This document shows, piece by piece, positions 20,635-23,600 of a stretch of 64,000 nt of DNA. The DNA lies in contig NW_024704743.1 of assembly GCF_018977255.1 (NCBI RefSeq), positions 20,398,001-20,462,000 of the forward strand, read 5' to 3'. Position 1 is the stretch's first letter; each line of letters begins with the position of its first letter. Source of the DNA: Callorhinchus milii. Taxonomy: Eukaryota. Made by a program: the position numbers and the translations under genes. The notes beneath the pieces are model-generated. The model saw only the letters and a program-made list of their open reading frames with translations, did no database searches and was not told the DNA's origin.

Positions 20635-23600
20635 GTAAGTATCTGCAGCGTTAGATTCCGCATTTTCAGCTCCCGATTCCCATCTTTCACTTCCCTTCAA
20701 AATGATAAATTGCAACACTGTCGAGCGTTTGTTAACAAGACTGTTGCAGATCCCCATTTGCCGGCGGATAAACCATCACCATCAGTCCCTGTCTCTCACC
20801 TTCGGAAATCCGTGTTGTTTCTATTCGCAGTTTGTAAGACCTGCATCGTTCGCTACTTGGAAACAAGCAAGTACTGTCCTATCTGCGATGTGCAAGTTCA
20901 TAAAACTAGGCCCCTTCTTAACATTAGGTATGTATCCACGGGCTGTGCTGATTGCGATAAAGGTAGTTGATTACGTCCTTACATGTGGTGGAATGAAACC
21001 TGCGTGAGCTACAGTGCAGCTTGGGTTGTGATCTGTGCTACATTATCAAAAGTGCAATGTCAATCTTTCCAAAACAACCTTTAAGTGTTGTAGCTTTGCC
21101 AGTTAGATAACATCACACCGTGTATTTGCAACATCGGATGTCAATCCCAGATAGATGTTGCAAATACCCTATTAGAGATGGTCTGTGGACTGGACTGTGT
21201 GAATGAACTGTAGAGCATTGAGGTGAGGTGTGCCAGACCGACCAAAATACACATCAGTCTCAAACAAATGTTACATTTCGCCTGCTTGAAAGTCGGAATC
21301 AGTGGTCCAATATACCATAACAGAATAAATAAATAGAAGGAAGTTTTCCAACTCAACTTTGATCGATGTACAGATCTGAGTTTAGTTGGAAAATCGATAC
21401 ATGCAAGGGCAATTACTGGGACTGTGCAATGCTCAATAATACCCTTCTGAAGTGTGTTTGCAATACAATCAATTTCTCTGGTATGTATCTGTATAATAAA
21501 GAGACAATTTTGCTGAATTAACTGAAATTAAAATTTCTTATCAATTTTGTAGTTTTTAAGTACATACAAGGTTATGTGTTATTGGAATCAATTTAGCTGA
21601 AAACTCTGCAAAGTGAATTATTTAGGTTCAAATTGCTCCTTTGGGCAGCTTTGCTAATTTATACAGAACATATTTTGGGAAATCTCCCATTAAATTTCAA
21701 TTTGTGCCAACTCAAGGCTTTAAAATGAACTCTGAACATTCCTGTAAAGTTAATGTAATTCTCATGCAAATCAATTGTCTTTGTATGTTTATTTTGTTGT
21801 TACGTATGCAGCGAGAAATGGCATTAATCGCAACATGGTTTGTGGAACAATATGTTTCATTAGTATTCTAAAAATATCTATTGCATATCTATTAGAGTTG
21901 TTTTTAAGCTCAGACAAGACTTTCCAAGATATTGTGTATAGAGTAGAAAACATGGCAGACTTTTCAGCAATTTTCTTCAAAACTGTTCCAGAAATACTAC
22001 ATTTCACCAAATTCTTTACACAATAAGAGTTTCTGCTGAGTCAATTGAAAATTCTTCATTATGTTAACTGCCAGCTGTATGTATGTACAAAAGTTAATGG
22101 AGTAAACACTGTTGTAAATTCATGTTAGTTAACAACATCCATCAGAATGATAAATTCTAGTCTGTTTATAGTGGAGGAGCTAGAGGTAACTAGCAATTAG
22201 TTGGTAAAACAAAATGAGCTTGTTCTTTGTTGTACTTCTATGAATCTGTGATTGTAGCATAAACAATTTAATGTTCAACTTGTTGCATGACTGTTGTTAT
22301 TCCTTGCCTAGCAAAAGAACAGAACTAAAAATATGAAATAGTCTATATTTGTTGTGTAATTTTGCATTACAATATTAAATATATTTGTAATTGTGCCATA
22401 CGAATTTCACATTCTGAGTTACTACACAGTGAATATAGTTTTTTGGCAAATAAATTCTTCATGTAATTTAGGTCTACTCCTACTTATGGAGATAAAAGTG
22501 GCATTTATGGATTGATACATGGAATAAGATGTTTATTGTAATAATGTAAAATAAGTCTGTTGTATTCAAACTTTTAGGTCAGACAAGACTTTACAAGATA
22601 TTGTATATAAATTAGTTCCTGGCCTCTTTAAAGGTAAGTACAGTACTTTGTTTACAAGATTAATTTACCATTGAATCAAATTTCTCTTTCTGTCATTTCA
22701 ACAATTAATGAACTTCTGTTTTGTAGATGAAATGAAACGAAGACGGGACTTTTATGCTGCCCATCCTTCTGCTGATGGTAAGTTTTGTCTATTTCTTAAA
22801 CCCCAAAATTCAATTTTAATTAACAAATGTAACATCATTGTATGTTTAGAAATTCAATCAGGGCACTTGAGAGCTCATGTTTATCACCATCATAATGTAA
22901 CCAAGCTTTATAATTTATTTAAAAAATGAAAATGTATGTCACTGTGGTAAGTCTGTTGCATTGTGGTAATTTTAAAATACATATTATAGTTTTGAAAACC
23001 CAAATTGTAGGTTACATTTTGTTATTGCATATCATTTCTTTTACATATGCCTTTTCAGATGGAAGTGAACTTGAACAGTAATAATTTTATTCCACTTACA
23101 GGACCACTCCTATTGTTTTTATATCATCTTAAAAGCATATTTATGTTAGACTTGATTTAATGTTAAATTAATATTAAGTATGGTTTGATGTTAAATCTTT
23201 AGTTTTACAGTTTTGCATAAAATTATTGCCAGTGTGTATGTGTAGTTTAAACTGTGAGCAGTCTTAAACTACCTTAAATTAATCTACAATGACATGTTCC
23301 TCCATCATGCAATGATAAACAGAGTTCAAGAATCATGAAAAAAATTGTCGTACATATAATGGACTGCTTTTCTTCTGTAGTTATTTGGATCTTGAAAAAT
23401 CCAAATTACAACAACATTTCATTTACTGAAATTTTTAAATATAGTATTTAAACATAGAACTCTCATGAATTAGTTTTGAATGTTAAAAAAAAGTTAGGAC
23501 ATTACTGTCTATATGATTTGTTTTATTTAACTAATGCAGCAGCAAATGGCTCTAATGAAGACAGGGGAGAAGTTACAGAGGAAGATAAACGGATTATAAC

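Follow-up and report, generated by a model that had tools for sequence, protein, structure and literature searches.

The window analysed here is a stretch of 64,000 nt from contig NW_024704743.1 of Callorhinchus milii (elephant shark), and all coordinates are positions within it. It holds the BMI1 (PCGF4) gene, whose coding region lies on the forward strand at 20523..25597 and is divided into 9 coding exons encoding 326 aa. The translation from the ATG at 20523 to the stop at 25597 is identical to residues 26-351 of the protein P0001, and over its last coding exon the gene matches, at 100% identity, proteins whose sources call them Callorhinchus milii Bmi1, a name that P0001 also bears. Upstream there is a non-coding first exon ending near 14789, as placed from the loose ends of contigs, so that the RING exon is numbered 3 and the exon at 22578-22633 is numbered 4. 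Exon 3 (20831..20927, forward strand) encodes the second half of the RING finger and has its donor at 20928. The true exon 4 (22578..22633, forward strand) is 56 nt long, encodes residues 70-88, and is joined to exon 3 in 4/4 runs examined. Intron 3, which separates them (20928-22577), has 1650 nt, and a partial copy of exon 4 lies inside it.

Exon 3 with the 9 nt before it and the 12 nt after it (20822-20939) has 0/118 differences, silent sites included, in the runs X12 and X19, which come from other or unlabelled organisms, and on this comparison the region is an ultraconserved-like coding exon. At the upstream end of the gene, P0001 has a 25-aa N-terminal extension that starts at an ATG at 15110 and is followed by a donor-like site (region 15110-15151), which suggests an alternative first exon of BMI1. 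The first exon found in the contigs examined is the one ending near 14789, as against the 15110 start of the P0001 model. P0002 is a 556-aa model of a COMMD3-BMI1 read-through protein that maps to 7171-12420, 14727-14792, and 20487-25594; comparable fused models are on record from sharks, a ray, and human.

Extent of the exon 4 copy and its flank

The copy (21909..21946, forward strand) sits about 670 nt upstream of its template and represents the first 38 nt of exon 4. It is identical to 22578-22615 at 33/38 positions, with 4 differences that change an amino acid and 1 that is silent, and the match is beyond chance, with a blastn E of 3e-8 within the window. The initial annotation of this stretch had drawn attention to it as a match of 29 of 31 nt between 21910-21940 and 22579-22609, and a recount gives the same number. 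The spliced joint in contigs places the start of the true exon at 22578, so that the first base of the copy also differs and turns Arg70 into Ser. The 2 differences within the 31 nt do fall at third codon positions as it said, but only GTG/GTA is silent, TTC/TTA being a change of Leu to Phe. The full set of amino acid changes relative to exon 4 is R70S, L75F, K81R, and L82V. Neither a gap nor a stop occurs inside 21909-21946. The copy comprises 38 of the 56 bases of exon 4 and stops short of the donor site, there being no GT in it at the place that matches the true exon 4 donor.

The homology extends upstream into the intron. A duplicated intron 3 flank at 21670..21906 (forward strand) is paralogous to about 22345-22575, with 62-74% identity (66-74% in gapped alignments and 55/88 in an ungapped block) and an nhmmer E of 1.8e-7 for the flank together with the exon part. 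When 21670-21886 is aligned to 22345-22565, the score is reached by 0/1000 dinucleotide shuffles in each of 4 tests, and a control pair of intron pieces scores the same as shuffles. The flanks align with gaps, and the 44 nt around the copied acceptor align with none. The template of the duplication is accordingly 22345..22615 (forward strand), the end of intron 3 plus the first 38 nt of exon 4, with a duplicated intron part of about 220 nt and a whole duplicated stretch of about 270 nt. The copy is thus homologous to the neighboring exon of the same gene both by its 33/38 nt and by its flank.

Past 21946, no homology was detected to the rest of exon 4 or to intron 4, where 905 and 980 of 1000 shuffles scored as well, as did 386-452 of 500 in a repeat test. 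Nor is there support for a complete head-to-tail repeat spanning 669 nt, the first 7 of 11 tiles (starts 21947-22307) scoring like shuffles, although such a repeat may have been erased by decay. The similarity of 21947-22340 to 20940-21665 is not significant. Of the tandem exon duplication proposed at the outset, the intragenic duplication stands and the copying of a whole exon does not, the segment being intron plus two thirds of an exon. No second copy of the relic or of its template was found elsewhere in G000 by searches that are insensitive to short diverged matches, one of which missed even the copy in intron 3.

Probable decay and age of the copy

The question of whether the copy is better kept than drift would allow was approached by halving the flank distance, which turns the flank divergence of 0.26-0.38 into 0.15-0.22 expected for one lineage. 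The mismatch of the copy is 5/38 = 0.13, and the probability of 5 or fewer differences under neutral decay against a frozen exon is 0.13-0.52. For the best 31-nt window, with its 2 differences, the simulated P is 0.04-0.24. If both copies were free to change, 5/38 would be unlikely, with P of 0.004-0.04, and the neutral fit therefore rests on the assumption that the partner is frozen. The support for a frozen partner comes from exon 3 and its edges, in place of exon 4, with their 0/118 differences in X12 and X19.

The kind of difference was also compared with expectation. Non-silent changes make up 4/5 of the differences, against 29/36 non-silent sites expected under neutrality, a comparison that has little power with five differences. 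Conservation of the encoded residues was taken from 203 aligned proteins out of 209 fetched, a set that is mostly vertebrate BMI1 and hence not independent. At position 70, R or K is found in 193/195 homologs and S in 0/195; at position 75, F is found in 0/192; position 81 is K in 191/192, with R once; and position 82 is L in 189/192, with V once. The copy so alters near-invariant residues by 4 of its 5 differences, which at this low power gives no sign of purifying selection on the encoded residues, and its divergence fits one neutral lineage, with the reservation that the numbers are small. By this weak test nothing points to a maintained protein from the copy. The slight excess of identity may hint at mild constraint or gene conversion.

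The age of the duplication can be placed relative to X12 and X19, whose organisms are presumably other chimaeras. Their intron 3 pieces differ from this genome by 11-13%, a figure that is biased since only pieces at least 80% alike enter the comparison, and the paralogous flanks differ by 26-38%. Because the orthologous introns differ by less than the paralogous flanks do, the duplication probably predates the split from those organisms. A 30-letter loose end in X19 matches the template at 27/30 positions, counted by eye, where the copy is heavily gapped.

Our preferred reading, which we hold to be likely, is that a segment of about 270 nt was duplicated to a place about 670 nt upstream within intron 3, and that the copy, probably old, is a neutrally decaying pseudo-exon skipped by the spliceosome. 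The duplication would have caught the acceptor without the donor, so that the copy could not have been defined as an exon, and it would have drifted ever since. The flanks of the copy seem to have changed more than the copy itself, as would follow from the near-frozen state of the real exon, which leaves one of the two partners to change in the exon and both in the flanks. Against a dead relic stand the survival of the AG and of its phase, the best 31-nt window, an echo of exon 4 in the peptide KTVPEI, and a block around a candidate donor with no difference among those listed in X19. The relic is real and apparently undescribed, but ordinary. As a dead relic it matters little, being one more decaying exon copy. 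Its use is to mark an old duplication in a genome that evolves slowly, and to warn that when an exon is frozen, its copy looks conserved even if no selection acts on it.

Duplicated exons in decay are a described class that affects 0.4-1.0% of the genes of mammals (Morais and Harrison 2009, PMC2718932). The copy resembles the pseudogenic exons of that source in being a copy of a parent exon inside the same gene, near the 5' end, in a gene of zinc-finger type, with decay-like substitutions. That set is mammalian, whereas BMI1 here is from a cartilaginous fish, and pseudogenic exons are defined there by a frameshift or premature stop, whereas the 38 nt of the copy have neither, the stop falling in unrelated sequence. 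The BMI1 copy is instead disabled by truncation and by the missing donor. It works like a pseudogenic exon but fails the strict definition. A second comparison is with tandem exon duplication-derived substitutions, which are mutually exclusive homologous exons (PMC8373072) and for which the copy does not qualify, although it shares with them the within-gene duplication, the homologous exon start, and an acceptor in the same phase. Those exons are whole, expressed, and conserved, 215/236 human cases having both exons annotated in fish; the BMI1 copy, unlike them, is partial, lacks its own donor, ends in a stop, and has no junction in the contigs of 4 runs. The main text of PMC8373072 mentions BMI1 and PCGF 0 times.

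Splice sites, transcripts and a possible poison exon

The copied acceptor at 21906..21908 (forward strand) is now AAG, where the real one is TAG. Its AG at 21907-21908 shares the phase of the real acceptor, as had been read from the sequence at the outset. The real BMI1 acceptors are CAG or TAG in 9/9 cases, where 18-68 nt separate the acceptor from the closest AG upstream, and the copy has upstream AGs 11 and 13 nt away, competing AGs that end at 21894 and 21896. The best candidate donor downstream is at 22183..22191 (forward strand; GAG/GTAACT, with its GT at 22186), and it would close a hypothetical 277-nt cassette, 21909-22185. The copy is hence not a whole exon with its own donor and a downstream frame that is kept, since it has 38/56 nt, no matching GT, and a stop beginning at 22024.

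This arrangement permits an alternative that we consider unlikely, in which chimaeras have taken over the ancient partial duplicate of exon 4 for use as a rare 277-nt poison or decoy exon, 21909-22185, that tunes the dose of BMI1, the acceptor already present in the duplicate being paired with a conserved donor downstream. As a poison exon, its inclusion would introduce a stop that lies 159 nt ahead of the following junction and would lead to nonsense-mediated decay (NMD); as a decoy, the copy would engage the exon 3 donor without being spliced and so hold intron 3 in place. Transcripts are marked for NMD by a premature stop that precedes a junction by more than 50-55 nt, and the 159 nt of the hypothetical exon exceed this distance. 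In favor of such an exon are also the AG in phase, a good donor, and the 37-nt block 22172-22208, which spans that donor and has 0 differences among those listed in X19, at a contig depth under 4, where the X19 pieces flanking it differ by 11-13%. The exon copy is, in addition, slightly better kept than the neutral expectation. On the other side stand the AAG acceptor and the nearer competing AGs.

Transcripts were followed in assembled contigs. Of 9 listed runs that are RNA-like, a status that is a guess of the tool, 4, from 2 studies, were examined, none of them known to come from material with NMD inhibited. In 4/4 of these runs there are contigs that pass from exon 3 straight into exon 4, skipping the copy. 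None of the 4 has a junction that leads into 21909 or leaves from 22185, in a joint table that is complete for assembled contigs, which drop rare forms. The junction 20927^21909, which the initial annotation had named as its own check, is thus absent from these contigs, and what it proposed as an NMD-inducing exon is mechanically possible, with a donor at 22186 and a stop at NMD distance, but has no junction in 4/4 runs. This counts only weakly against a rare exon, given what contigs drop: the main mRNA skips the copy, and the contigs do not show that the copy is never used. The evidence excludes the parts that a filter on records leaves uncovered, namely the copy in X6, X7, and X9, and the copy with the real exon 4 in X12, X14, and X19. 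The absence of any RNA record listed for the stretch is uninformative on expression.

Unspliced contigs cover intron 3 in 3/4 RNA-like runs, and in two of these they start inside exon 3, a count that is no measure of retention. One contig of X5 is unspliced through 21711-22341, including the acceptor, the stop, and the candidate donor. The X5 intron 3 contig that starts inside exon 3 has a depth of 13 as against 45-55 for mRNA contigs, depth being a poor measure of level. The 1650-nt intron carried in 3 runs would suit a decoy that holds the intron, but the cover also fits ordinary pre-mRNA or DNA, and these contigs may be ordinary pre-mRNA. Moreover, retention of intron 3 by itself would bring in a stop at 20968, after 83 aa, so that an NMD target can arise without the copy. 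The intron 3 contigs end at 22341 (X5), 22352 (X6), and 22313 (X7), shortly before an ATTAAA at 22374; we dropped these ends as a hint of polyadenylation, all being from one study and beside an A-rich tract.

Decoy and poison exons such as those of SF3B1 intron 4 and OGT (PMC6097662) offer a precedent, and the copy shares with them a cryptic acceptor and donor, an intron over 1 kb, competing AGs, and an NMD stop. According to that source, the junctions of decoys are rare or go unseen unless NMD is inhibited, and competing splice sites are frequent, both of which would fit the copy. The decoys described there are, however, highly conserved, at 93-98% from chicken to human for SF3B1, and junctions, an NMD response, and strong conservation are so far features of the decoys alone. 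Searches of open-access literature for a poison exon in BMI1, for retention of its introns linked to NMD, for a dominant-negative truncated variant, and for bmi1 of the elephant shark yielded nothing to the point. If true, a poison or decoy exon here would mean control by splicing of the dose of a core Polycomb subunit, of which our searches gave no published description, and a clear example of partial duplication giving rise to a regulatory exon.

Sequence beyond the breakpoint and the predicted product

After the breakpoint the frame runs into non-homologous intron sequence at 21947..22026 (forward strand), which stays open for 26 codons to a TAA at 22024-22026. Stop-free windows of 26 codons account for 611/3179 overlapping windows in the three long BMI1 introns, and 10/88 of the AGs in intron 3 are followed by at least 38 open codons in the same phase; the 26 codons past the breakpoint are ordinary for BMI1 introns.

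Within this tail, the peptide KTVPEI resembles KLVPGL of the real exon, and was originally read as the other half of a copy split by an insertion. That would require a copy of the whole exon that was later interrupted by an in-frame insertion of 39 nt, with KTVPEI as the second half and the first half perhaps refreshed by recent gene conversion, a sequence of events that we rate as very improbable. The protein echo has a nominal P of 0.011-0.025, since 16/1499 stop-free 26-aa blocks score as well, or 37/1499 with three motifs allowed, but it was picked after the fact. At the nucleotide level the first 13 nt match 9/13 in register, yet the whole echo has 12/25 nt identical as against 33/38 in the first half, too diverged for halves of the same age (P of 1e-5 to 1e-3). 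A split copy is further opposed by an expected end with no donor-like site and by the lack of detectable homology to intron 4. The echo is probably chance, and a split whole-exon copy would still be a dead copy.

The remaining proposal of function was that the copy serves as an alternative last exon and yields a stable 108-aa BMI1 with the RING only, acting as a dominant-negative form or a variant PRC1 module, and this we find scarcely credible. The frame was recomputed and is open from the 20927 to 21909 splice to the stop at 22026, giving the predicted 108 aa that had been claimed; ATTAAA at 22374 and AATAAA at 22449 lie downstream, and BMI1 RING fragments of similar length, 97-117 aa, are in the PDB. 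These fragments, however, keep the native sequence to at least residue 101. In the predicted product, residues 70, 75, 81, and 82 are changed and 83-108 are replaced, including V83 (192/192 homologs), P84 (191/192), and L86 (187/192). It is without the RAWUL domain and without both basic motifs of BMI1, which we take to be nuclear signals. The N-terminal extension of RING1B wraps the PCGF4 RING, steered by PCGF's C-terminal extension, which forms a helix, according to a review (PMC5310723), and the solved minimal complex contains BMI1 2-109 (PMC13672072). The predicted product would lose most of this post-RING helical region that guides RING1B binding, which makes a dominant-negative form unlikely; it differs from the known RING module and would presumably bind RING1B poorly.

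No protein with the tail of the copy was found, 3 candidates giving no match at an E of 1 or less and 0 matches among 1.84 billion representatives, which is weak evidence; no cartilaginous-fish name occurs among 89 short BMI1-like matches, many of which are unnamed, so that this too is weak. The tail is unrelated intron sequence with no homolog found, and one X5 contig has a variant at 21967 that would be a missense change in it, Ala to Thr. A single-sequence fold of the human BMI1 RING fragment came out at low confidence (pLDDT 51.5) and was set aside.

Misassembly, which the initial annotation had listed as something that could undo its case, has a negligible probability, since single contigs hold the copy in two runs (in DNA-type X1, which could in principle be the source sample, over 20800-22800, where 5 letters differ and 2 nt are inserted, all outside the copy; in X5 over 21711-22341 with the copy in its own flanks), and since units about 30% diverged could not come from a collapsed or doubled haplotype.

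BMI1 has a second intragenic duplicate, 23278-23312 and 24577-24611 in introns 5 and 8, identical at 33/35 nt and the only two matches in G000. The flanks of this pair are not significantly alike and its folding is no better than shuffles (z of 0.06 and 0.43); a short 94% match can stand in BMI1 without coding. At both copies, contigs of RNA-like runs start some 85-88 nt ahead of the core (X5 at 23190; X5 and X6 near 24491, judged by loose-end length). Short matches of 80-86% over 36-39 nt in X1, X12, X14, and X19 were taken as chance, their flanks being unrelated. Short intronic hairpins lie at 21344-21393, with 21-nt arms that are 86% complementary and an 8-nt loop, and at 23376-23413; neither has an Rfam match, and Rfam over 20400-26000 gives one match at chance level (E of 0.55). 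Intron 8 also carries a dispersed repeat at 24857-25038, with copies of 76-82% identity at 58431-58602, 35458-35622, 51322-51388, and 397-481, which is probably a SINE-type element.
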